Source: a virus. From it: a stretch of DNA of 64,000 nucleotides. The DNA lies in IMG/VR virus record IMGVR_UViG_3300045988_140118. One strand, 5' to 3'. A model generated the notes under the pieces. That model made no database searches, was not told the origin of the DNA, and saw nothing but the letters and a program-made list of their open reading frames with translations. Positions 7,782 through 61,620 of the stretch are shown here, in pieces (positions within the stretch are counted from its first letter, which is position 1; each line of letters begins with the position of its first letter). Position numbers and translations under genes: made by a program.

Positions 7782-8459
7782 ATGTTAGATAAAACAAAAA
7801 CCGATTCCGTATTAGGAGCAAGCGTAAATGAAATGCTTCTAGAGTTGGGAGTTGAAACTCCTATGGTTGGTTTAACTCCGTTAACGTCCGAAGATAAATA
7901 CGCCAGTATAAAAGATGCTGTTTTTGATATTATGCAGTGTTTGGGTCTTGACACGGAGGATGACAGTTTGGCACGTACTCCCCATAGAATAGCCAAGATG
8001 TTTTTGGACGAATTGTTTTGGGGACTTGACTACGATAATTTCCCGAAAATAACAACTATCGAGAATAAAATGCAGTATAATTCCTTGCTAATGGAAAGAC
8101 ACATTAAAGTTCATTCTATGTGTGAGCATCATTTCGTACCCATTATCGGAGAAGCTTTTATTGCATATATTCCCAACGAACGGGTGATAGGTCTTTCAAA
8201 GATCAATCGTGTTGTTGAGTTTTTCTGTAGAAGACCGCAAGTGCAAGAACGTTTATGTGAACAGATATTCCATACTTTACGCTATATTTTAGGCACCGAA
8301 AGCGTTGCCGTTCTTATTCGGGCAGAACATTCATGCGTAAAAGTAAGAGGTATTGAAGATATTAACTCTGACACGCAGACGTGCAGATTCTCCGGTGCGT
8401 TTAATGAAGTAGCTACCAGAGGAGAGTTTTACAGTTTAATCGGCATGAATAATGGCTAA
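7782..8459 (+). CDS. folE: GTP cyclohydrolase I (FolE type)
   Basis: RTPHRIAKMF, CEHHFVPIIGEAFIAYIP and GLSKINRVVEFFCRRPQVQERL are hallmark FolE motifs. Confidence 0.9.
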   Translation: MLDKTKTDSVLGASVNEMLLELGVETPMVGLTPLTSEDKYASIKDAVFDIMQCLGLDTEDDSLARTPHRIAKMFLDELFWGLDYDNFPKITTIENKMQYNSLLMERHIKVHSMCEHHFVPIIGEAFIAYIPNERVIGLSKINRVVEFFCRRPQVQERLCEQIFHTLRYILGTESVAVLIRAEHSCVKVRGIEDINSDTQTCRFSGAFNEVATRGEFYSLIGMNNG

Positions 8460-9047: not shown

Positions 9048-9377
9048 ATGACTCCTCCAGTATTTTCTACAGATGCAGACTTCAGAGTAAGTGTTCTATC
9101 TTACCTAAAAAGTGCCAACTCTATTAAAAAGTCTACTGTATTAGTAGCAACGACTAAGGGATATAAAGGGAAATTATTCTCAATAATTTTTCAGACCGTT
9201 TATTCCATAAAGAGTGAAAAAGCCCCTTTGGTTACTATTTTGAAAGGTTCTTGCTTTTTTATTGACTCTAGAAATCGCTTAGAGGTTTCTTGTGCTATGT
9301 CAAGCGTACCTCTTTCTACGTGTAGCTTCCCTACAAAGGACGAATACAATGCTTATTTAAATATTCCGGTAGTATGA
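9048..9377 (+). CDS. hypothetical protein
   Basis: 109 aa ATG ORF. Confidence 0.5.
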   Translation: MTPPVFSTDADFRVSVLSYLKSANSIKKSTVLVATTKGYKGKLFSIIFQTVYSIKSEKAPLVTILKGSCFFIDSRNRLEVSCAMSSVPLSTCSFPTKDEYNAYLNIPVV

Positions 9378-9622
9378 TAACTATTTTACTAACTACTTTA
9401 CTATTTCAGGTAGGCACCAATCTTATTTTATGGTATAAGTTTATACGGACTAAGAAACAAAAGGAGTGCGCTTACTATATAGACTATCGAAAGGGAAACA
9501 CAATATTAAGAGTGTTCAAACCTTTTTACGAAGGAAAAGTGATCTCCGAAATACCCCTACATAAAATTTTAGACCGTGGTACATTGAATCAGTATTACTT
9601 GTGGGTATTGATAGAGATGTGA
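9374..9622 (+). CDS. hypothetical protein with N-terminal TM segment
   Basis: 4-nt overlap with the upstream gene. MITILLTTLLFQVGTNLILWY is hydrophobic. Confidence 0.5.
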   Translation: MITILLTTLLFQVGTNLILWYKFIRTKKQKECAYYIDYRKGNTILRVFKPFYEGKVISEIPLHKILDRGTLNQYYLWVLIEM

Positions 9623-9676
9623 TTTGGAGAGTTATTAACTATCTCCTATATTTGAACCAAAATTTCTTAAAAACAG

Positions 9677-9982
9677 ATGAAAAGTATAAACAGTTTAGCA
9701 TTAGATTCTCTTAGGATCGCACTCCTGAGAAATAAAGTAACCATTTTTTCTGAAGAAGCCTCAGTCCATCAAGAGACTTGTGACAGTCTTCGTGAAGAAG
9801 TTGACGAGTTTTTACAAGCAAGTGAGTGTAAACCTTCCGAGCATTTACCTGAATATACTGAAGCAGTCGAAGAGCTTGCCGATATTGCTTTAGTAGCTTT
9901 GACCGAACTCTCCAGAAGAGGGGTTAACGTAGAGAAAGTTTTACTACTCAAAAGCATGTACAATGAAAGAAGAAATGATTGA
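9677..9982 (+). CDS. MazG-like nucleoside triphosphate pyrophosphohydrolase
   Basis: LREEVDEF...AVEELADIALVAL matches the ExxE / EExxD metal-binding helices of all-alpha NTP-PPases. About 100 aa. Confidence 0.5.
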   Translation: MKSINSLALDSLRIALLRNKVTIFSEEASVHQETCDSLREEVDEFLQASECKPSEHLPEYTEAVEELADIALVALTELSRRGVNVEKVLLLKSMYNERRND

Positions 9983-10274
9983 CTTTACCTGTTCCGGAAT
10001 GACCGTTGAAAACGCTACAGATTTACTGAATGTTTTTCTACAGGAATATTGTACAGAACATTCGTTTACGGAAACGTCCTTGAAAGAACACCTCTTTGTC
10101 ATTTCTTCTGGAGAAGGTTTTTCTGTCAACAAGAAAGACGATAACAATCCTATTTTTAAACTATCTAAGAAGGATACTGCTTTTGAAGGGACTATTTATG
10201 CTTCAGAAGAATCTTATCCAATAACTACAAAATTTCTCCGCAGGTTTACCTCTGTGGAGTCAATGATTTACTAA
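9963..10274 (+). CDS. hypothetical protein
   Basis: 103 aa ORF overlapping the upstream gene by 20 nt. Confidence 0.45.
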   Translation: MKEEMIDFTCSGMTVENATDLLNVFLQEYCTEHSFTETSLKEHLFVISSGEGFSVNKKDDNNPIFKLSKKDTAFEGTIYASEESYPITTKFLRRFTSVESMIY

Positions 10275-10290
10275 CTTAAAACAAAAAATT

Positions 10291-10857
10291 ATGCGATCTT
10301 TTAAAGTTTATTGCGGTGGAAAATTTCATGAAACCGTGGATCATTTAATTAACTTAGGCTATAAGACTTGTGCTTCTTGTACTGATGATGACGGACCTTT
10401 TATTGTCGCCACGGAAGACGGTTCTTTTATTTGGCTATCTGACTACAAAGCATTTAGAAGTGTCACGGATGTGATAGAACTTCCTTTGTCTGTAGTTAAT
10501 GCGTTTAAAGCTCAGGATATTATGTTTGAGATTCCTGCGGGATCTTCCGTGATGCCTCTTCTTGAAAAAGATGGAGTCCCTTCTATTTTTTCTGTCTCCG
10601 ATGGAGAAACATTTTATATAAGAACCGTTGATAGGGATAACCGTTTCGATGGGAATTTCCTGAAACTAACTCTTTTACCAATGGGAGAGATGTCAAACGA
10701 TGCAACCGAAGCCAGTAAAGTTGCTCGAAACATTTCCGGGATTACTGCCGGGGAACTACTAGCGGTACTGGTAGAACATTCTAAATACTACAAGCACATC
10801 GGTTCGGATGTTCGTGATTGTTTGCGGGCAGTGCATGTCACTTTTGAAGGACTTTAA
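10291..10857 (+). CDS. hypothetical protein
   Basis: 188 aa with protein-like composition. Confidence 0.6.
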   Translation: MRSFKVYCGGKFHETVDHLINLGYKTCASCTDDDGPFIVATEDGSFIWLSDYKAFRSVTDVIELPLSVVNAFKAQDIMFEIPAGSSVMPLLEKDGVPSIFSVSDGETFYIRTVDRDNRFDGNFLKLTLLPMGEMSNDATEASKVARNISGITAGELLAVLVEHSKYYKHIGSDVRDCLRAVHVTFEGL

Positions 10858-10914
10858 TCTTTGGAGTAATGGAATACATATCAGATTATCTGCCTTGTGA
10901 CGAAATAATTATCC

Positions 10915-11217
10915 GTGCCAGTGAAAACAACTCTGAAAAAGGAGATTCAGAATTTCCCGAAATTTATCTCCCTTAAAAATAAGCTGGTCCTCCGACTAAC
11001 CGGAATAGACTTGAAAGGCAATGGTATTTATGCCCATGAAAATAGACATAAGTTTTTACTAGTTGCCCGAAAGAAGGATAAGTTTATTATCCTGAACTAT
11101 CCGGAAGAGTCGGAGAATTTTACGGAATGTACTTTGTCCTCTCGATCTGCTTATATACAATCGGTAGGAGGTTGTGTTGACTATCAAAAAATAAAACGTA
11201 CTGAAAATTTATATTAA
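10915..11217 (+). CDS. hypothetical protein (GTG start)
   Basis: 100 aa ORF with no in-frame ATG, so a GTG start is implied. Confidence 0.4.
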   Translation: MPVKTTLKKEIQNFPKFISLKNKLVLRLTGIDLKGNGIYAHENRHKFLLVARKKDKFIILNYPEESENFTECTLSSRSAYIQSVGGCVDYQKIKRTENLY

Positions 11218-11218
11218 C

Positions 11219-11440
11219 ATGGATTCAGAAACTTATATAGTCCCTGTAGCTATTACAGTTAGAGGAAAAATCGCTTTAAAAGCGAACAATTGGGTTGAGG
11301 CTAGAACAATTGTTGAACAAGAAATTGATAATTTTGGGGTTGCCGTAACCATCCCTGATGGATTTTCCGTAGAACTACCTTTTGAGAAATGTCAGGAGTC
11401 GCTTGGTTTTGTAACAATTAAAGACAAAACTAAGAAGTGA
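11219..11440 (+). CDS. hypothetical protein
   Basis: 73 aa ATG ORF, 1 nt after the upstream stop. Confidence 0.5.
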   Translation: MDSETYIVPVAITVRGKIALKANNWVEARTIVEQEIDNFGVAVTIPDGFSVELPFEKCQESLGFVTIKDKTKK

Positions 11441-11498
11441 AAAAATCGCTCTTTAAATAGTTTTTCGCTTTCCGGAGATTGTATGTCTAAAAATTCAT

Positions 11499-11506
11499 TA
11501 TCTTTG
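11499..11506 (+). promoter_or_regulatory. -7 box TATCTTTG
   Basis: TAnnTTTG 24 nt upstream of the ATG at 11530. Confidence 0.5.
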
Positions 11507-11529
11507 CTTCGGATACAAAATTATATGGT

Positions 11530-12000
11530 ATGGCACAGTTAACTTCGTCTACTGTCCAAAAGATTCGGGTACTGCTTGCTTCTTGGACTTCTGTTAGACA
11601 AAAAACGCATGTGTTCCATTGGAATATTACAGGAAGTAGTTTTAATGAACTGCATAAATATTTTGAGGAACTCTATGATGAAGCAGTGAATAGTATGGAT
11701 AGTTGCGCAGAACGTCTACGACAAGTAGGAGTTTTCGTAGAAATGTCGCTAAAAGATGCTGCCGAATTATCCGTTCTCGGAGATGCCGGATTTTCTACGA
11801 CTGATGACCGGGAAATGGTAATCGACCTAATCAGATCTTATGCACAGCTTACCGCTTTACAAAATGAAATTTATTCGGAGGCTGATGAAGTAGGAGATTA
11901 TGTAACGGCTGACTTAATGACGCAGCTAAGTAAAACGAACGAGTTAAGAAGTTGGTTCTTATCTTCATGGTTAGGAGAACAGAATCAAACCCAGTTATAG
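11530..12000 (+). CDS. dps: Dps-like DNA-protecting ferritin-superfamily protein
   Basis: HVFHWNITGSSFNELHKYFEELYDEAVNSMDSCAERLRQVG matches the Dps ferroxidase-helix pattern (HW.v.G..F..lH..fee.y.....D..AER). 156 aa. Confidence 0.8.
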   Translation: MAQLTSSTVQKIRVLLASWTSVRQKTHVFHWNITGSSFNELHKYFEELYDEAVNSMDSCAERLRQVGVFVEMSLKDAAELSVLGDAGFSTTDDREMVIDLIRSYAQLTALQNEIYSEADEVGDYVTADLMTQLSKTNELRSWFLSSWLGEQNQTQL

Positions 12001-12117
12001 AATCATTTTTAAGTCATAATTGATTAGCTATAAAATTCATTCGATCCCGGACGTACAAAAAATACTTGTGAAAGTAGAGTCCAGTAAAATTAATTCGATT
12101 TGCATATTATGTAGGAA

Positions 12118-12150
12118 AGGATTGCCTGTGAAGGTAGTCCTTTTATTTTT
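12118..12150 (+). terminator. hairpin plus T-rich tract (first of two tandem terminators after dps)
   Basis: AGGATTGCC / GGTAGTCCT stem (2 G-U pairs) followed by TTTATTTTT. Confidence 0.5.
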
Positions 12151-12155
12151 ATAAG

Positions 12156-12195
12156 TACCCTCGACTCTCCTAAAAAAGAGTTTGAGGGTATTTTT
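12156..12195 (+). terminator. rho-independent terminator
   Basis: TACCCTCGACTC ... GAGTTTGAGGGTA stem followed by TTTTT. Confidence 0.7.
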
Positions 12196-12622
12196 GTGCC
12201 CAAGTTAGTTATAACTATATGTACCTAAAAAATCGCATTTTAAAACTACCTATTTTTCCCTATTTATTTTCCTTTCTACCTAGTTTCTTATAACTACCTG
12301 ATAAATTCCTTTTCCAGTAATTAAAAAACGCTCCCATGAAGCGGTATGTCTTACTATATGCAATAAGGAGAATCCCCTATATAAAGACGGTTCTGCAAAC
12401 AAGTCCCCCGGAAAGTTTGCCAAAAAGCTAAGGATTTTTGCGGATAAATGTTTTAATACTATTATAATAACATTAATACTATAAGTATGTGTAATGGGAG
12501 TGATGGGTAAGCAAGAAAGATAGAAATCTCCTATTACTAGATTACTGGCTAGATAGCAAGAAAACAGGGCTACACATAGCTGTAGGGCAGTGAGCGTTCG
12601 TGCAATTATAGAAATTAGCTGT

Positions 12623-12644
12623 GTATTTACGCAGGTATTTACGC
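12623..12644. repeat. tandem direct repeat GTATTTACGC x2
   Basis: Identical 10-mers at 12623-12632 and 12635-12644. Confidence 0.9.
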
Positions 12645-12876
12645 TTATTTAGTTTTAATTGGCTGGTTGGTTACTTACTTTTTTAGCTGTTTTTCTTGTT
12701 TAGAACCCTGTTTTTACCCTTCTAATTTGAGAAAAGTTAGGGAAGTTTACAAAAACAGCCTATTTTCTAATTTATGCCATCACTGAGTATCAGATAGTTA
12801 GCTCAAAAATTTCCGGGGGTTATATCTTTTTGCCCAATTCATAAAAATCATTACACAAAAACGAGCGATAACAATA

Positions 12877-13200
12877 ATTAGAAGCTAATTAGCGTAATTA
12901 CGTAGTAAATTAGCCGTGTAACTAATTAAATTACGCATGCAGAATTAAAATTAGCGTAGTTTTATTTTAGTTATTCTTTCTACTTTCTTATATAACTAAC
13001 TTAGCGATTAAAAATAAACTGGAAATTACGTGCGGAAATTAATTTCTACTTTAATTCTTATCTTATACTCCTATTATATACTAGAAACTAAATTAATTTG
13101 CGGCGAATATTTTAATTTCTAGTTCTAATTTTATCTATGTCTTATGATATAGGTATACATAGAATAAAATAGCGTGCGAAATTAAATCTACTTTGCTAAG
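12877..13200. repeat. AT-rich iteron-like repeat cluster
   Basis: Many AATTA(G/C)CG-type words lie between 12877 and 12960. Three spaced copies of a GCG(G)AA(A)TTAA(T)TTCTAC-like core sit at 13032-13049, 13100-13122 and 13172-13191. Confidence 0.7.
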
Positions 13201-13543
13201 CGTAGCGATTCTTTCTAATAGAAATTAAATAAGCCCAATTAAAAACGGCAAATAAACTAATTACTTTTAGTAAACCATATACTAAGTAGAGATACTTACT
13301 ATTACCTACTAAGTAACCGATGGATTTATTCAAAGAAACATCGAAGGAAAGATAACTTTAAATTTTTTGCGGCAATTTCTTATTCCTTATTCCCAGAAAG
13401 ATCTACCCGTAGATACATAGAGTGATTGGACGTGAGCTGACTGAGCTGAACCAAGAGAGGGGTACCCTTAAATGGACTTAGCAGGGCGGTTAGGTTCGGG
13501 TAGTACGCTTAGGTCACAGAGTGGAAAAGACGACCTGTATTTT

Positions 13544-13629
13544 TGTGACTGCATGTGTGATAGACAGTGTGTGGTGTGTAGTGTGTGTCTGAGAAATGTA
13601 GTGTGGTGGTGTGTGACTGCGTGTGTGAT
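13544..13629. repeat. GT-rich block bounded by an 18-nt direct repeat
   Basis: TGTGACTGCATGTGTGAT (13544-13561) and TGTGACTGCGTGTGTGAT (13612-13629) flank (GT)n-rich sequence. TGAGCTGA occurs twice at 13433-13449 just upstream. Confidence 0.9.
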
Positions 13630-13777
13630 CGAACGAAAAAGGACGCTACACGGTACGACTATCTAATGTGTATACCTATACAGTTACTTTGCATGTGATA
13701 ACTGTTAATTGATCTAAAAATAACAATGCCTTTTGAATAAAACTTTCTTTTCAGTTTGTTATCTAACATAAAATTAC

Positions 13778-13785
13778 TATCTTTG
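13778..13785 (+). promoter_or_regulatory. -7 box TATCTTTG with -33 TTTG at 13755-13758
   Basis: TAnnTTTG 42 nt upstream of the ATG at 13828. 19-nt spacing to TTTG. Confidence 0.6.
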
Positions 13786-13827
13786 TGTATAAAAGTTAAT
13801 CACCTAACAACATTAAAAGACAAGGTT

Positions 13828-14073
13828 ATGAAAGCAATTACAGAAAAAGAGACACTAAACAATAGGTTTTGTAAAACAGATAAAAAGACAAACAAAGTTA
13901 CTTTAACTAAAGTGAGTCGCAAACAAGCTGAAAAAATGGATATACGTACTTTATGTTTGTACATAGCTTCAGAGAGCCTAAGATTTAGAAGTGTTGCTAA
14001 AGCTACTGAAAATGCGAATCGGTGGTTAGCAGAAGGAGATAAAGAAAAAATAGTAAGTTTGTTTTTTGAATAA
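13828..14073 (+). CDS. hypothetical protein
   Basis: First ATG in track ORF 13756-14073. Sits downstream of the promoter box. Confidence 0.5.
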   Translation: MKAITEKETLNNRFCKTDKKTNKVTLTKVSRKQAEKMDIRTLCLYIASESLRFRSVAKATENANRWLAEGDKEKIVSLFFE

Positions 14074-14105
14074 TTAGAATATAGACCTTTTAAAAATATA
14101 CAATT

Positions 14106-14405
14106 ATGAAAACAGTTATTTCAAAATTAGACAAGAAGACATATTATCTGGCAGTTGCTACTAACTGCGAGTACAGTGAGTTTATTGAAGGAGAAAGATA
14201 CCAAGTGAGAAGCGCAACGAAAGAAGATTGCCCGGACTTTGAAGATTACTGTGTAGTAAATGGTACTTTCTGGGAAACACTTCCTGAGATAGACTTTCTT
14301 CGTATAAGCGGAAGACCCATGATCAACCGATACAATGGCACTTACTTTCTTCACAGACTGGTATTGAAGAGTGATTGCAAAAAGTATCTGTCTTATCTTA
14401 ACTAA
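14106..14405 (+). CDS. hypothetical protein
   Basis: 99 aa ATG ORF. Confidence 0.5.
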   Translation: MKTVISKLDKKTYYLAVATNCEYSEFIEGERYQVRSATKEDCPDFEDYCVVNGTFWETLPEIDFLRISGRPMINRYNGTYFLHRLVLKSDCKKYLSYLN

Positions 14406-14426
14406 TAATGAATTTGATATAAGAAA

Positions 14427-14654
14427 ATGGGAACTTCCAAGAAACAAGCTAATATTTTTGAAAAGGTGGCTACTTGCCAGAGTCCAACAGGAACTACCTA
14501 CGGATATATTTATACCAAGAACGGATGGTTTGGTTATTACATGTGTGGTTACAAATATCCGGAGAAAAAAGGTACCCTGGAAGAAGTTGAAAAATATGTC
14601 CGTGAAGAATGGGATTTGATTATAAAGAGAAGTGCGAAATTTAAGAATATGTAA
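14427..14654 (+). CDS. hypothetical protein
   Basis: 75 aa. Preferred over the overlapping ORF 14371-14619 on spacing and composition. Confidence 0.45.
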   Translation: MGTSKKQANIFEKVATCQSPTGTTYGYIYTKNGWFGYYMCGYKYPEKKGTLEEVEKYVREEWDLIIKRSAKFKNM

Positions 14655-14691
14655 AACCGGTAGCCGAAAGCTGCCACAACACCCAAAAATT

Positions 14692-15558
14692 ATGAAAACA
14701 ACTGTAGAAACTATTTCATTAGAAAAACTCCATGAAACTTGTGTAAAGAAATTCGGCGATACGCTGGATACGTACTACACCCGTAAAGTAACTGCCCGTT
14801 TGGCAAAGAAGATTACCCGTGAACTGGAAGAAATCGCTTCAGGTATGCGTAAACCGAAAACAGAGATCCTGCCTGTTGAGGAAGTAGAGAGCTTCGATTC
14901 GTTTACCGTAATGCTGGATGGCGAGAAGTATGTATTCAGTGGGGACGATGACGAATACTACCTGAAACCCGCCAAGAGAGTCAGAAGAAAAGCAAGTGCT
15001 CCGGCGGAAGAGACTCCGGTAACTCAAAAGGCTCCCACCAAGCTGGTAAGGAAAGAAGCTCCGAAAACCAAAGAGGTGAAATTGGTTCCGGGTAAGGACT
15101 ACGTATACGAGTTGGTACGTCCGTTACCCATGTGGAAAGGAGTGTACCCGTCTATGGAGGAGATTACGAAAGTTTGGAACGTGATTACGATGTCTTGTTC
15201 GGACGAGCTGCTGTTTCAGATGTTGAACGCAGCCACTATTCCGAATGTAAAAACCGAACGGATGCCGGAACTCAGTCGGATTCTTTCCGGTAAACAAAAA
15301 GACCGCAGCCAACTTCGGGTATTGGCGAACTTGCTGATTCACGATCTGGCCGGTGCGCTCAGCGGGAATGTTGCCATGTATACGGATAAAGCGGTGAAAA
15401 CGGTTGCCTCTTTTGTACAGAGCGTGCCGTACCGTACAGCCAACGTTACCGCTTACTTGGAGGAACGTGGTTTTAAGTTGACGGGTAACGTTTATAAACG
15501 TGGACGTACCGTACTGAATACCTACAAAGAGATAGCCGAATTTATAAACGCTTGTTAA
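14692..15558 (+). CDS. hypothetical protein
   Basis: Internal ATG of track ORF 14632-15558, chosen to avoid overlap with the upstream gene. 288 aa with a basic central linker. Confidence 0.6.
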   Translation: MKTTVETISLEKLHETCVKKFGDTLDTYYTRKVTARLAKKITRELEEIASGMRKPKTEILPVEEVESFDSFTVMLDGEKYVFSGDDDEYYLKPAKRVRRKASAPAEETPVTQKAPTKLVRKEAPKTKEVKLVPGKDYVYELVRPLPMWKGVYPSMEEITKVWNVITMSCSDELLFQMLNAATIPNVKTERMPELSRILSGKQKDRSQLRVLANLLIHDLAGALSGNVAMYTDKAVKTVASFVQSVPYRTANVTAYLEERGFKLTGNVYKRGRTVLNTYKEIAEFINAC

Positions 15559-21440: not shown

Positions 21441-21971
21441 ATGGGAACTATTACAAGAGTGTTTGAGTTTGATTGTGCCCATCGGGTAATGAATGAAAAA
21501 GTAAAATGTTTCAATTTGCATGGTCACAGGTTCAAAGCGGAAGTGACCCTTTCTTACTCAGAGAAAGCTGCTTTAGGTTATGCAACCGACTTTAAAGAAT
21601 TGAAAAGGATTTTAGGTGATTTCATAGACAGGTTTTTAGACCATGCCTGTTTACTGAACCCCGAAGATCTGGGTCTTATTACCATGTGCTCCGAAAATAA
21701 ATGGCGCTTGTGGATTATGGGATTAGGACATCATGCGGATGTTAATCCTTCTGCTGAGAATATTGCTTCTGAACTTTTCTACATCTTCAGACAGTTTTTT
21801 CCTAAAGACTCTCAAACCAGTATTGAGAAGATCCGTTTATACGAGACTCCTAATTGTTGGGTAGAGGTTACTGGCTACGACTATGAAGCCACAGAATCTT
21901 TTCAAAAAGAGATTATGAAGTGGAGAAACTCAAAAGGAACATTCAACTACGATATAAGAACTGATATTTGA
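21441..21971 (+). CDS. queD: 6-carboxy-5,6,7,8-tetrahydropterin synthase (QueD / PTPS family)
   Basis: FEFDCAHRV...CFNLHGHRFKAEVTL...DFKELKRILGDFIDRFLDHACLLN matches the QueD catalytic Cys/His and zinc-His pattern. Confidence 0.8.
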   Translation: MGTITRVFEFDCAHRVMNEKVKCFNLHGHRFKAEVTLSYSEKAALGYATDFKELKRILGDFIDRFLDHACLLNPEDLGLITMCSENKWRLWIMGLGHHADVNPSAENIASELFYIFRQFFPKDSQTSIEKIRLYETPNCWVEVTGYDYEATESFQKEIMKWRNSKGTFNYDIRTDI

Positions 21972-21972
21972 T

Positions 21973-23625
21973 ATGCCAAAACTAAGGAAGAAAACTCCTG
22001 ATGAAGAAGGGTATGTATTTCCCGCTACTGGTAAGAGTATAGATGATATACATACTGAAGACATTGCCGGAAAATCTATCTCTTTTGATGCCCACGAGAT
22101 TACAGGTAAGATTATCGAGTTCGGGAAAGTCCTTACAGGAATCTCTTTGTACAAGTATCAAGAAGACATAGCTTATGGAATTATATATTCCGTCATTACT
22201 TTTTCCGGAGATGTAAAGACTGTGCTTCTTTCCAGACAGTCCGGTAAGTCTGAGGTAATGGCATTTGTAATTGATACACTTACCGTTCTAATGCCGGCAC
22301 TTGCAAATATTATCCCTGAGTTCGAACAATTCCAGACCGGATTTCGAATAGGACTGTTTGCTCCACAAAGTGATCAGGTAGAAACTACTTATTCCAGAGC
22401 ACTTGCCAGAATTAATTCCGCTAATGCGGAAATGGTTTTAGATGACCCTGATATTGGTGTTTCTTTGGAAAGTGCCGTTCGTTTGCAATTAAGCAACGGT
22501 TCTTTTCTTGCCGGACAAACTGCCAGTAAACAATCTAAGATCGAGTCTAAAACTTATGACCTAGTAATTGTTGAAGAGGCTCAGGACGTTGATGACTTTA
22601 TTGTCAGCAAGTCCATAGAACCTATGCTTTCTTCTACTGCCGGAACTCTTATTAAAGTAGGTACTACTGGTATGACTAAGAATCACTTTTACTACGAGAT
22701 TCAACATAACCGAAACAGTGACCGAAAACTAAAAGATCCCAGAGTACGGAATCATTTTGAGTATGACTATAAAAAGATTATTCAAGACCGTAAAAAGCAA
22801 TATGATTTAGACCACAAACGTTTCCACCTTAATTACGAGGCGGATGTTTTGCGTAAAAAAGCTCGTTGGGGAGAAGACTCTCAGGCATTTAAACTTGCTT
22901 ATGCGTTGATATGGGACTTGGAAAGCGGTATGCTTATTACCGATAAAGAGTATAATAAACTTCTTAACCGTAAATTAGGCTATCAAGATCCTACCGAAAG
23001 AGACTTGGTAGTTGCTGGTCTGGATATTGCTAAAAGTCCTGCCAGCACTGTCTTGACTATCGGAAAAGTTATCCCAAACGAAGATCCTTTTGAAAGAAAG
23101 AAAAAACAAATTCTTGCGTGGGTTGACCTGAAAGGACTTGACTATGAAGCTCAACACCGTGTTATCATGGATTGTATTGTCGATTTCAATATTTCTATTA
23201 TCTTTGCGGATTATACAGGTGTCGGTAAGCCAGTAGTAGACCGTCTATCATTTGCTTGCGGAGAATATGTATCGGTTGTTCCGTACACATTTACTTCTCA
23301 GAGTAAATCGGATATGTGGTATAACTTCATTAACGAGATTCAGACGCAAAGTTTGATTATCCCGGCTAATAAAACAGTTCGTGAATCTGAGGAATATAAA
23401 TGCTTCGAGGAACAGATTAAAAACTGCCAAAAATATTATAACGGCTCTTACTTAGTCTGTGAAAAGTCGGAGGGATTTTTTGATGACTATGTAGATAGTA
23501 CAGCTCTTATGTGTTTGGCGGGTAATGACGAACCGGAGATTGAAGACGAGATGGAGGTAACTGACAATCCGTTGTACTCGAATATCTCAGATACAATTAA
23601 TGCACTTAGAAGATACTCTTTTTAA
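21973..23625 (+). CDS. terL: terminase large subunit
   Basis: Walker A-like LLSRQSGKSE, Walker B-like YDLVIVEEAQ and a C-terminal nuclease-like AGLDIAKSPASTVLTIG. Positioned upstream of the portal. Confidence 0.85.
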   Translation: MPKLRKKTPDEEGYVFPATGKSIDDIHTEDIAGKSISFDAHEITGKIIEFGKVLTGISLYKYQEDIAYGIIYSVITFSGDVKTVLLSRQSGKSEVMAFVIDTLTVLMPALANIIPEFEQFQTGFRIGLFAPQSDQVETTYSRALARINSANAEMVLDDPDIGVSLESAVRLQLSNGSFLAGQTASKQSKIESKTYDLVIVEEAQDVDDFIVSKSIEPMLSSTAGTLIKVGTTGMTKNHFYYEIQHNRNSDRKLKDPRVRNHFEYDYKKIIQDRKKQYDLDHKRFHLNYEADVLRKKARWGEDSQAFKLAYALIWDLESGMLITDKEYNKLLNRKLGYQDPTERDLVVAGLDIAKSPASTVLTIGKVIPNEDPFERKKKQILAWVDLKGLDYEAQHRVIMDCIVDFNISIIFADYTGVGKPVVDRLSFACGEYVSVVPYTFTSQSKSDMWYNFINEIQTQSLIIPANKTVRESEEYKCFEEQIKNCQKYYNGSYLVCEKSEGFFDDYVDSTALMCLAGNDEPEIEDEMEVTDNPLYSNISDTINALRRYSF

Positions 23626-58974: not shown

Positions 58975-61620
58975 ATGTTTAATAACTTGTTAAAAAATAG
59001 CTGTATGGAAGTAGGCAGTAATTTAATATTAACTGAACGAGAGATAACAAAATATTTTAAGAGTTCGGTACAAGATATTCAGGATATGCTTTCATTACCG
59101 AATCCGGAATACCAAAATATTATGCGGTTTGGGAAAGGGAAGTTCTACAAGAATGTTCCCTCCCACATTTGCTATTTACGCACGGAAGGTATTCTGATTC
59201 CTCGTTACGTCTTACCTCGTTATTTTTTCGGGGAACTTGGTTCTGACCTAACTTACGAGAGTTATGTAAACGTAGGACGTTCTTTGGAGTCAGACCATAC
59301 CATTTCGTTACGTGGTTATCAAAAAGACTTCTTTAAAGCCAATAGTTCCACGATTGATTCCAGTACTGGACTTCTTCTGGAAGCTCCTTGCGGACATGGG
59401 AAATGCCACGGTAAAGGTACTCGTATTCTTATGTACGATGGCACCGTTAAAAATGTCGAGGATATTAAGGTCGGTGATTTACTTATGGGAGATGACAGTA
59501 CCCCCAGACGTGTATTGTCTCTTGCCAGAGGAAGAGAAGAAATGTTTGAAGTAATTCAGAAGAAAGGAATAACGTATACCGTGAATAAGTCCCATATTCT
59601 GTCCTTAAGGTATCGTCCTTGGAGTGGTAGAAGTAAAAAAGCTACTTCCTACGAAAGAGATCACTACGATCAGGTATTCGATCTTCCCCTTACTGAATAC
59701 TTGGACTACGCTCCTTCAAAAAAGTCTGGGTATTATGGCTATTGTGTTCCCGTTGACTATCCCGAAAGAAACCTTAAATTCGATCCCTACTTACTTGGAT
59801 GTTGGTTAGGTGATGGTACGAGTAAAGAACTGTCCTTTACCTGTTCGAAAAATGATAGGACTTTGGTGCATTATTACGCTGAGGTAGCCGCTTTCTATAA
59901 TTTACAACTTAACCGAATAAAACAAATTAATTCTGATGGTACTAGAAATAATTCGAATTTATACAGACTTAAAAGTTCAGTTAGGGTAAAAGGTCATTGG
60001 AAAAATACTCTTTGGGATCTGTTTAAAGAATACGGACTGAAGGATAATAAACACATCCCTGATGACTTTTTGGTTAACTCCAGAGAAAACAGATTAAAAC
60101 TTCTTGCCGGTATTCTGGATACTGACGGTCATTTAAGACAGGGTATTTTTGATCTTGTGCAGAAACGCAAAAATCTTATTTTGCAGATACGTTCATTGTG
60201 TTGGTCATTAGGTTTCAGAGCACGGTTAACCGAAAAAATTTTAGGAGGACAATCTTATTGGCGATTGAGTATTTCTGGAAACATTCACGAGATTCCTACT
60301 AAACTACCCAGAAAAAAAGCTCCGGTTCGTACAATTAACAAAGATCCTTTTGTTAACGGTATTTCCGTAAAATCTATAGGGGAAGGGGATTATTATGGTT
60401 TTATGATTGATGGAAATCATAGATACTGCCTCGAAGATGGAACAGTTACCCATAATACGGTCATGGGCATTTGGTTAGCCTACCTGCGCTATGTACAAAC
60501 TCTTGTTTTAGTACCTACGTATTATTTAGCCCGCCAGTGGAAAGAGCGCATAGAACAAGTTTCTACCGCCAGCGTTTATATTGTTACTTCGAAGGATTCC
60601 GCCATTCCCATAGACAGTGATTTTACGATTGCCGTAATGGATTTGTTTTCAGTGCGGACACTTCCTGAGTCATTCGTAAAGAACGTCGGCCATGTTATTC
60701 TTGACGAGGCTCACAGGATCGGTGCCGAGACGTATATGCCTATTCTGGATCAAATACCTGCCCGTTATCGAACGGCTCTCACAGCTACCTTTAGACGCAG
60801 TGACGGAGTACATAAAATTTTGAAATACCATTTCGGGGAACATATTCAAATGGAAAATCGCTTTCCGAAACCCAGAGTTTTTTCTATGCCTACCGGAGTT
60901 ACCGTTGAAATGTGCCTTAGTAAAAACAAAAAATACCAGCACTTCATCGAGTTCTTAGACTCCAATGATCTGGACTATACTGAAACTCAGAAAACAATCG
61001 CTTTTCCTAAAGACGTTCCCTATGAAGAGATTGCTGCCCGCCAGTTAAAAGTGGGTTCCCTGACAAAAACAGCCTATGCCGAGATTTGTTCCTGTTTACG
61101 AAGAGGCAAAGAATTGTCTTATTCAGTCGTTGAGTCGTATTTGAATGAAAGTTCTTCCAGACGTAAGCGTGTCATCTCGTTAATACAACGCTGTTTGGAT
61201 GCCGGACGTACCGTACTGTTCCTATCTAAGCGCAAAGATATACTGCACGTTCTGTACAAGCACTTTGCTAAATACCGTCCTATGCTGATTGTCTCCGGAA
61301 CAGATGATTTATCCGCAGAGGAATCAAAGTATTTGCAAGAGGCTTGCCCACTTATTTTGGGAGTTACCCAACTTGCTAAAGAGGGTTTAGATGTTGACCG
61401 ACTGGATACCCTTGTTGTGTATCTTCCTTTGAAAGACCTTGAACAAGCTTTGGGGCGTATTTCCCGGTTACATCCGAAAAAGAAAGACCCTATCGCTTTT
61501 TATATGCTTGATAACTGTGCCCTAACTTGGGCAACGTTTATGAACGCTAAACGGATGATGAAGAAGTATGCCGATTATGTCGATTCCAGGACTTTACAAA
61601 CAATAAACACGATTTTATAA
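58975..61620 (+). CDS. SF2 (DEAH, ResIII-like) helicase interrupted by an intein
   Basis: Extein motifs: LRGYQ, split Walker A APCGHGK|T, DEAH (VILDEAHRIG), TATFRR and QALGRISR. The intein occupies 59404-60456. Confidence 0.85.
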   Translation: MFNNLLKNSCMEVGSNLILTEREITKYFKSSVQDIQDMLSLPNPEYQNIMRFGKGKFYKNVPSHICYLRTEGILIPRYVLPRYFFGELGSDLTYESYVNVGRSLESDHTISLRGYQKDFFKANSSTIDSSTGLLLEAPCGHGKCHGKGTRILMYDGTVKNVEDIKVGDLLMGDDSTPRRVLSLARGREEMFEVIQKKGITYTVNKSHILSLRYRPWSGRSKKATSYERDHYDQVFDLPLTEYLDYAPSKKSGYYGYCVPVDYPERNLKFDPYLLGCWLGDGTSKELSFTCSKNDRTLVHYYAEVAAFYNLQLNRIKQINSDGTRNNSNLYRLKSSVRVKGHWKNTLWDLFKEYGLKDNKHIPDDFLVNSRENRLKLLAGILDTDGHLRQGIFDLVQKRKNLILQIRSLCWSLGFRARLTEKILGGQSYWRLSISGNIHEIPTKLPRKKAPVRTINKDPFVNGISVKSIGEGDYYGFMIDGNHRYCLEDGTVTHNTVMGIWLAYLRYVQTLVLVPTYYLARQWKERIEQVSTASVYIVTSKDSAIPIDSDFTIAVMDLFSVRTLPESFVKNVGHVILDEAHRIGAETYMPILDQIPARYRTALTATFRRSDGVHKILKYHFGEHIQMENRFPKPRVFSMPTGVTVEMCLSKNKKYQHFIEFLDSNDLDYTETQKTIAFPKDVPYEEIAARQLKVGSLTKTAYAEICSCLRRGKELSYSVVESYLNESSSRRKRVISLIQRCLDAGRTVLFLSKRKDILHVLYKHFAKYRPMLIVSGTDDLSAEESKYLQEACPLILGVTQLAKEGLDVDRLDTLVVYLPLKDLEQALGRISRLHPKKKDPIAFYMLDNCALTWATFMNAKRMMKKYADYVDSRTLQTINTIL
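59404..60456 (+). mobile_element. intein with LAGLIDADG homing endonuclease, inserted in the helicase P-loop
   Basis: Starts with Cys (CHGKGTRILMYDGT, Hint block A) directly after GHGK and ends VTHN followed by Thr. Two LAGLIDADG motifs (LLGCWLGDGT, LLAGILDTDGH). 351 codons, in frame. Confidence 0.85.

Follow-up and report, generated by a model that had tools for sequence, protein, structure and literature searches.

What is the role of a long stretch without genes in a phage genome whose other genes stand close together? This question is raised by the IMG/VR virus record IMGVR_UViG_3300045988_140118, from which a stretch of 64,000 nucleotides (nt), hereafter the window, was analyzed. The window is a segment of a phage genome, encoding a large terminase (TerL), a portal, a major head protein, a sheath-like protein and baseplate proteins, and its genes from 113 to 47653 all lie on the plus strand. 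Between positions 12001 and 13471 (1471 nt), no open reading frame (ORF) of 60 amino acids (aa) or more occurs in any frame. The next-longest ORF-free stretches of the window measure 185, 170, 135 and 117 nt, the longest of these being exceeded eightfold. A preliminary description of this DNA had pointed to the same ORF-free stretch and to the shortness of the other gaps (at most 185 nt), and both observations were borne out. Judging from sequence comparisons, the region is a single conserved non-coding control region, located where dps, the last gene, meets the first gene. We tentatively propose, with a probability of roughly 0.4, that this region is the head-to-tail junction of the genome, combining a packaging/terminal-repeat recognition site with the start of early transcription. 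The junction, origin and regulatory readings weighed below are not mutually exclusive.

The non-coding region between dps and the first gene

Relatives of the phage were collected by a search with a conserved 472-aa downstream protein, which gave 19 IMG/VR loci (cited below with L numbers), and by DNA-pattern scans of IMG/VR. Scanning metagenomes with an 18-base pattern of the conserved core described below gave 75 loci, ~73 of them genuine and 29 of these belonging to chromosomal islands, and a core pattern scan of GTDB genomes gave 12 loci, of which 5 were genuine. Among deposited phages, the sole match was an isolate on B. salyersiae, Bacteroides phage BS162P1 (OP172706, 88.9 kb). The ends of its record overlap by 55 nt, and the record is therefore a circular assembly, cut inside a non-coding region of ~2 kb between the dps homologue and the first gene. 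Overall, the family consists of Bacteroidales myophages of ~85 to 93 kb from human gut samples, and the region is syntenic in every relative found. In BS162P1, 145 of the 146 genes lie on one strand (+); therefore, the homologous non-coding region is the single start and end point of the gene circle. The cumulative GC skew of BS162P1 rises monotonically round this circle, a trend that is confounded by the direction of transcription.

The window and BS162P1 share 67% DNA identity over dps, 83.6% over the non-coding positions 12742 to 12814 and 69% over 13409 to 13524. Within the L021 clade (13 sequences), three parts of the region, namely, the side of module M1 (Table 1), a middle block and the core with its G+T-rich block, are 93 to 98% conserved, compared with 55 to 62% for the dps region and 71 to 87% for the downstream genes. 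The preliminary description had offered three candidates, a replication origin or partition site, captured genome termini and a locus for non-coding RNA (ncRNA). What stood of this proposal is a conserved functional non-coding element, syntenic throughout and with blocks of 93 to 98% conservation in one clade. Of the candidates themselves, the termini and the origin are the two leading ones, each as a putative role, and the ncRNA locus was not supported, as detailed for the core.

On the left, the region follows dps not only in the window but also in BS162P1, in the L021 and MT835482 clades and in L172. We also observed that a Dps/ferritin-like gene is the last gene before the non-coding region across the whole phage family. 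The two tandem terminators that had been noticed after dps were confirmed by a terminator scan and by folding, the pair having a minimum free energy of -38.2 kcal/mol and a z score of -6.6, with equal stability in 0 of 200 shuffles. By eye, the first terminator hairpin (loop TGTGAAR) is kept in BS162P1 and L021 despite an altered stem sequence. At the right end, the canonical -33/-7 promoter of the preliminary description was found as TTTG/TAnnTTTG at 13755 to 13785, and this area is conserved with BS162P1 and L131; promoter sites of this Bacteroides type number 12 in the window, against 2.85 expected. The repeats that had been named were likewise all present where they had been placed. A 64-aa ORF (13472 to 13666) has its ATG inside the conserved core. 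In relatives, it is closed by a stop after 11 to 14 codons (L021 and BS162P1) or lacks the ATG (L013), and it was rejected as a hidden small protein because it is not conserved. Since this ORF is spurious, the non-coding region extends to the gene start at 13828.

The interval from dps to the core differs between clades. It is ORF-free over 1.5 kb in the window and measures ~1.5 to 1.8 kb in BS162P1 and L021, with BS162P1, the L021 clade, L004 and L131 being ORF-free between dps and the core, as the window is. In the MT835482 and L172/L247 clades, it spans 4.6 to 6.9 kb and is packed with co-oriented short genes of 70 to 190 aa, several of which form paralogous families, partly very acidic and without a Pfam match; these could possibly be early anti-defence genes. 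Up to ~19 short co-oriented genes stand between dps and the core in such arrays (L172:403-7000, minus strand; L147:600-2130; L247), including paralogous families of 73 to 90 aa, whose members have a DFIDLFL-like motif at their end, and a protein of 76 aa that is very acidic, again with no Pfam match. Short coding genes at this place in related phages were what the preliminary description had named as an observation that would refute its view. Such genes are present in two clades, but they have left no trace in the window, and the closer relatives are ORF-free. Because two related clades fill the interval with short genes, the spacer is, on this comparison, a variable slot, and most of 12200 to 13400 is not indispensable, even if close relatives have conserved parts of it.

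Taken to its extreme, a variable slot could mean that 12200 to 13400 is a mostly functionless spacer, a decayed or emptied accessory-gene slot in which only the terminators, the core and the promoter matter. The hypervariability of the interval, from 1.5 kb without ORFs to 4.6 to 6.9 kb of short genes, and the indel-rich array segments agree with this idea. However, a tblastn search with 23 L172/MT835482 proteins against the region and the whole window revealed no significant remnant of decayed short genes (best E value, 0.017), several of the inner blocks show high conservation, either within a clade or in the comparison of the window with BS162P1 (83.6%), and TAATTA-type motifs recur across clades. 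We consider a functionless spacer very improbable.

The core site

The core (Table 1) follows the consensus CCCTTAAAY-N24-GGGTR-N7-TAGGT across the family. In 31 diverse representatives, CCCTTAAA, GGGT and TAGGT are invariant, and no indels occur from the core start to past TAGGT. The core is the only block alignable across all clades, and it is present in all phage relatives and in the integrase-linked islands. In the window it is single copy, and it was for this reason rejected as a repeated promoter element. The fixed spacing within the core is imposed by the search pattern in the metagenome set. A scan allowing gaps of 21 to 27 nt, which is a loose DNA pattern swamped by chance matches, contained among the matches listed at least ~20 true members, all with one spacing except for a second copy in L131. 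In that locus (L131:540-800), two tandem core copies lie 138 nt apart, the second having a spacer 2 nt longer and being followed by a hairpin with an 11-bp stem.

Invariant patches at fixed spacing, with freely varying sequence between them, resemble a protein-DNA recognition site, and the core is therefore most likely a DNA site recognized by a protein and not a structured RNA. In the mechanism we propose, it would work as protein-bound double-stranded DNA rather than as a folded RNA, the support for this step being of a negative kind. A search of positions 11000 to 15000 on both strands with cmscan (E ≤ 1) gave 0 Rfam matches, tRNAs were looked for and none was found, and the island L165 gave only sub-threshold chance matches to Rfam, outside the core. 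RNAalifold, applied to the 31 diverse sequences, returned 3 invariant pairs, 0 covarying pairs and -1.35 kcal/mol. The fold of the window core did not differ significantly from shuffles on either strand (z = -0.62 on the plus strand and +0.84 on the minus strand).

These are the Rfam and covariation checks called for by the ncRNA candidate of the preliminary description, in which the core, or a longer transcript from M1, would be a functional RNA, and they yielded neither a known family nor a consensus structure in the 31 homologues. The orientation of the core is fixed relative to the genes, as expected of such an RNA; in some clades, an ACCCC-UUAAAU-GGGGU hairpin can form along with a variable inner hairpin in which some changes are two-sided, and these helices pair in 62.5% of cells, compared with at most 45% for slid partners; and, by eye, a hairpin followed by a U-rich run comes after the core in the window and in L021. 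However, the candidate helices pair in only 62 to 79% of cells. The long-range helix reaches 79%, yet where its pairs vary, about half of the 31 sequences leave them unpaired, and the local and inner hairpin reach 62%. An apparent compensatory pair (UA/CG with UG intermediates) flanking the ACCC/GGGT helix in 14 sequences was rejected, since it is unpaired in 16 of 31. Moreover, no canonical promoter lies upstream of the core. Among the readings considered here, we hold an ncRNA locus to be the least probable, and a small RNA with little structure would still be compatible with these results.

Two other roles were rejected. The core does not qualify as an attP site, as neither the window nor the phage-type loci have an integrase homologue, and the islands have no second core copy; for the latter reason, it is not a flanking att repeat of the islands either. 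The pentamer CCCTT, the classical target of topoisomerase IB (TopIB), is invariant in the core and starts its invariant octamer. A target of a poxvirus-type TopIB was nonetheless rejected, because the window and the MT835482-type and L172-type loci lack the TopIB gene. Only the BS162P1 and L021 clades have a gene for a poxvirus-type TopIB, which lies downstream of the core at a distance of 2.3 to 2.8 kb (BS162P1 1827-2591; L021:8292-9023).

Chromosomal islands that carry the core

The islands with a core number 29 among the metagenome loci and 4 among the genome loci, the latter coming from Parabacteroides, two Rikenellaceae and a metagenome-assembled genome of the Bacteroidales (contig of 882 kb). 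Upstream of the core and in the same orientation, they carry an int1 tyrosine integrase gene (Arm-DNA-bind_5 domain, 28 to 100% identity among islands) and/or an HTH_17 excisionase-like gene. In islands of several clades, a TAnnTTTG box seen by eye ~96 to 119 nt after the core start forms a predicted promoter, and a palindrome of 16 to 20 bp, CCGGATTTnnGGAAATCCGG, lies between the core and this promoter. The promoter is followed by 2 to 7 kb of variable cargo and, in many loci, by a conserved 300-aa recombinase on the opposite strand. Pfam identified EcoRII, Dcm and Vsr in the cargo, and motif reading only suggested a STAND-type NTPase, an OLD/UvrD-like pair, a reverse transcriptase and PD-(D/E)XK-like proteins. 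Overall, this cargo looks like anti-phage defence. The loci fall within L148-L230 (e.g., L165:1465-11749, L166, L182, L201, L223, L227 and L230). Between the HTH_17 gene and the core they hold 2 to 4 short phage-like genes, and many have a conserved 160-aa gene on the opposite strand.

The islands and phage L172 share 80 to 95% nucleotide identity over up to 1.35 kb left of the core. This shared left flank holds two to four short phage genes with up to 98% amino acid identity, and the homology ends at +41 or +84 from the core start. For the 30 window proteins tested, no homologue turned up in the islands. Among the cargo genes inspected, none is a phage structural gene, and no replication genes were recognized. 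The islands thus have sequence features of satellites, namely, genes for an integrase and an excisionase, a lack of recognized structural genes and a cis site that is also found in a putative helper phage. Known satellites, such as P4 and cos-type phage-inducible chromosomal islands (PICIs), typically copy the packaging site of their helper phage. As in P2/P4 cos, cos-type PICIs and phage-inducible chromosomal minimalist islands (PICMI), the unique site of a phage family is found here also in small integrase-bearing islands. Unlike in the cos- or pac-sharing satellites, the site has no terminase genes next to it, and the islands share short phage genes left of it in addition. Cleavage, packaging and induction are putative in the present system.

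It is conceivable, if rather doubtful, that the core and its left flank form a packaging/replication cis signal of these virulent-looking phages that was copied by undescribed defence islands of Bacteroides, Parabacteroides and Rikenellaceae. Such islands would be satellites or hitchers, mobilized or amplified by the infecting phage and spreading anti-phage systems. The link between phages and islands is the part of this work most likely to be truly new; a limited literature search found no Bacteroides satellites, no account of the BS162P1 ends and no description of the core element.

Genome junction, replication origin or regulatory site

Three arguments favor a packaging or end-forming role. 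The first is that, in a one-directional genome, the region is the only junction, since almost all genes run one way and one large non-coding region lies between the last and the first of them. The second comes from the terminase. Outside the family, the nearest TerL matches are those of Bacillus BCD7 (34%) and of the Streptomyces BRock group (31%), and BRock, the nearest characterized terminase relative, has an exact direct terminal repeat of 221 nt (record NC_048650.1; L237 and L238). In this record, the genes begin at 869 and stop 412 nt short of the right end, giving ~1.06 kb of non-coding DNA once the ends are joined; the BCD7 record is circular and uninformative on ends. The third is that known satellites typically borrow packaging sites. 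This role also agrees with the uniqueness of the ORF-free stretch, which holds both composition extremes of the 64 kb (lowest GC and highest G+T), with the single-copy, recognition-like character of the core, with the strong conservation of the blocks in the L021 clade and with the occurrence of the site in the islands.

A similar layout is known from other phages. Genomes of the T7 type are one-directional, have short direct terminal repeats and bear repeat arrays and early promoter(s) shortly after the left end. The present phage resembles junctions of the T7/BRock type in its one-directional genome and in having just one non-coding region, of ~1 to 2 kb, where the last gene meets the first; short repeat arrays and early promoter(s) near the left end, which is putative here, are common to both as well. 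It differs in that TerL is only 31% identical to that of BRock and in being a myovirus-like phage of Bacteroides, and no sequence similarity of the region to the T7 or BRock ends was found. Phage T5 has a long non-coding, repeat-rich region near its genome end, proposed as an injection-stop signal, and terminal repeats of ~10 kb that contain genes. The boundary region of T5 is alike in being long, non-coding and repeat-rich near the genome end of a large lytic phage, and the size and gene content of the T5 repeats are a difference. Altogether, we regard the region as a phage cis-acting control region, with a layout similar to that seen in terminal-repeat phages at the concatemer junction or in the control region of the left end.

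According to this junction model, the virion DNA would be linear, with a short terminal repeat inside the region, and the region would form the head-to-tail junction in replicating concatemers. The core, possibly together with the adjacent oriented G+T repeats, would be the site recognized by the packaging machinery to make the ends. The two terminators would close the upstream unit, and the TAATTA-type motifs in the spacer resemble protein-binding sites. Early transcription is predicted to begin just right of the core, where the promoter match is observed and its activity predicted; the A+T-rich stretch and the promoter at the right would launch rightward transcription.

Several observations weigh against a junction. 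In full-length metagenomic contigs, the core lies inside the contig at no particular place, and contigs that break in the region (BS162P1, L012, L023 and L131) do so at differing positions next to repeats; the 88,455-nt contig of L012, for example, starts inside its threefold 24-nt tandem repeat. Contig ends were therefore rejected as a proxy for termini, being scattered breaks and arbitrary cuts. As noted, the TerL identity to a phage with known ends (BRock) is only 31%. The TerL gene starts at 21973, 8.2 kb downstream, unlike cos sites of the lambda/P2 type, which adjoin the terminase genes, and a cos site of that type was rejected on this ground. The islands are devoid of the G+T and A+T blocks and so could not use the packaging signal if these blocks belong to it. 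No island was found among the IMG/VR viral contigs, a collection that selects for viral hallmark genes. An island promoter within ~100 nt after the core suits a regulatory role equally well. Lastly, the physical ends are a prediction for the whole family.

The elements of the region are listed in Table 1. The M1 arrangement (TCGCGG, AATGTTT/TAATTT and 40 to 50 nt of pure A+T) is found in BS162P1, L021, L172, L131, L004 and the island L165, its alignment being weak, with a mean column identity of 50%. TTAATACTAT was rejected as a phage-specific promoter motif, as it is not repeated elsewhere in the window. The GCTCCCA motif of the minus-strand hairpin recurs in BS162P1 and L131. Two-copy repeats of 10 nt are weak evidence alone, and motifs of the TAATACTA type and the TAATTA type recur in the homologous regions of relatives; the TAATTA type, as a motif and not as alignable sequence, is present also in BS162P1, L004, L021 and MT835482. 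Within the L021 clade, the segment of the TAATTA array is the indel-rich, variable part. The repeats of the G+T block are all oriented along the plus strand and comprise GTGTGA-type motifs and a direct repeat of 21 nt (13544-13564 and 13612-13632); equivalent G+T-rich blocks come after the core in BS162P1, L004, L021 and L172. The A+T-only block before the promoter of the first gene recurs as a type and not as alignable sequence. Two further repeats were seen. A perfect 12-nt inverted repeat, TATAGGTATACA (13148-13159) and TGTATACCTATA (13669-13680), has one arm on each side of the core and the G+T block, the arms being 509 nt apart; it could be due to chance in AT-rich DNA. In L012 (1-95), a 24-nt unit, GAACAGTTACTTTTATCACGGATA, is repeated three times in tandem ~100 to 200 nt upstream of the core, and L021 has one copy.

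Table 1. Coordinates of the features at and beside the non-coding region of the window
Feature	Positions	Strand	Basis and remarks
dps/ferritin-like gene	11530..12000	+	Pfam Ferritin, 7e-21; last gene of the upstream transcription unit, left boundary
Two tandem intrinsic terminators (predicted)	12115..12199 (hairpins 12115-12144 and ~12153-12193)	+	Each hairpin followed by a U run
CTACCT, three short repeats	12246..12299	+	Sequence and repeat finder; weak, conservation in relatives not seen
Terminator-like hairpin, then T run	12329..12343	-	Scan; predicted only
Module M1: GCGG, A+T-only stretch with two copies of TTAATACTAT, then GTATGTGTG	12440..12495	+	
Conserved block in common with BS162P1	12742..12814	+	83.6% identity over 73 nt, against 67% for dps
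AT-richest segment with array of TAATTA-type palindromic motifs (GCTAATTAGC, GTAATTAC, GCGnAAATTA)	12870..13260	.	
Core: CCCTTAAAT-N24-GGGTA-N7-TAGGT	13465..13514	+	Conservation spans ~13440-13545
-7-type box TATTTTTG	13538..13545	+	Matches TAnnTTTG; 73 nt after core start; lacks the -33 TTTG; promoter predicted
G+T-rich, C-poor block	13544..13640	+	C = 8%, G+T = 70%
Bacteroides -33/-7 promoter of the first downstream gene (ATG 13828)	13755..13785	+	Exact TTTG-N-TAnnTTTG match

The elements at both sides of the core might alternatively serve as a replication origin, in which an initiator of the phage or the host binds the core and/or the TAATTA-type array and the pure A+T blocks unwind. This is less probable in our view than a junction, though several extremes of composition speak for it. 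The lowest-GC 300-nt window of the 64 kb (24%; 12868-13167) is inside the ORF-free stretch and, together with the pure A+T of M1, has the character of an A+T-rich unwinding element. The motif AATTAGC/GCTAATT is strongly enriched, with 5 copies in the region and a single one in the other 62 kb, and the motif type recurs in all ORF-free relatives. The 100-nt window richest in G+T of the 64 kb (0.75) starts at 13528-13536, just before the TAnnTTTG box, and a G+T block after a -7-like box would favor priming by an RNA-DNA hybrid, as in origins of the ColE1 or T4 oriF type, which likewise have a strand-asymmetric G-rich block downstream of a promoter-like box. The order of core, G+T-rich block and A+T-only block is kept in the phage clades examined, pure A+T blocks following the G+T block in the relatives. 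AT-rich blocks of the unwinding type and clustered short motifs are also features of lambda ori, P1 oriR, P4 ori/crr, ColE1 and T4 oriF. GC skew is monotonic round the circle, with its discontinuity at the region. The islands, without recognizable replication genes, would have copied the site so that the machinery of the infecting phage replicates them.

However, there are no classical iterons, that is, three or more direct repeats of ~17 to 22 bp with regular spacing; the motifs are 7 to 13 nt long, irregularly spaced and in both orientations. Unlike iteron origins, the region has neither enriched DnaA boxes nor a recognizable adjacent initiator, since Pfam, PHROGs and PDB searches of the neighboring proteins were empty. 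The array is the most variable, indel-rich part of the region and is dispensable in related clades, the sister clades having short genes in its place. Furthermore, the GC skew is confounded by one-directional transcription.

A purely regulatory role is somewhat less probable than an origin. In this case, a DNA-binding protein would use the core as its operator or activator site to control the rightward promoter(s) and, through them, the early genes, and the islands would have reused the core so that their cargo is switched by the same regulator, e.g., on infection. The core is always upstream of, and co-oriented with, the next genes in phages and islands, and by eye the patches conserved after GGGT recur every ~11 to 12 bp in the 31-sequence alignment. 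A TAnnTTTG box stands after the core in the islands, with the palindrome in between, and the window has TATTTTTG at +73 and a full promoter at +290. Nevertheless, the nearest promoter-like box lies anywhere from 73 to ~300 nt away from the core in these contexts, and the box at +73 in the window lacks a -33 element. A single operator would also leave 1.5 kb of extra non-coding DNA, the G+T block and conservation above that of the genes unexplained.

In other parts of the window, an 881-aa DEAD/ResIII helicase (58975-61620) has an intein-type insertion (Pfam Hom_end_hint, aa 144-212, 8e-20), and PHROGs "terminase" matches to aa 130-420 of this helicase probably reflect the intein. A GTP cyclohydrolase I (7782-8459; 6e-58) and a QueD-like enzyme (21441-21971; 1e-24) suggest a pathway for 7-deazaguanine DNA modification. 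The TerL gene has 1.65 kb in the window (21973-23625) and ~2.7 kb in BS162P1 (9334-12057; L235:3335-6058, one coding sequence) and MT835482 (11123-13837). Since tblastn matches the longer TerL in two pieces, BS162P1 and MT835482 probably carry an in-frame, intein-like insertion.

The phage family described here is common in human gut metagenomes and almost entirely unannotated, and its single-copy, invariant core provides a search key for relatives. The core motif is also a concrete target for finding the ends, the origin or the early switch of the family. If the link between phages and islands is functional, it would represent, within our limited literature search, the first satellite-like system in Bacteroidales and a route by which defence systems move between gut bacteria.

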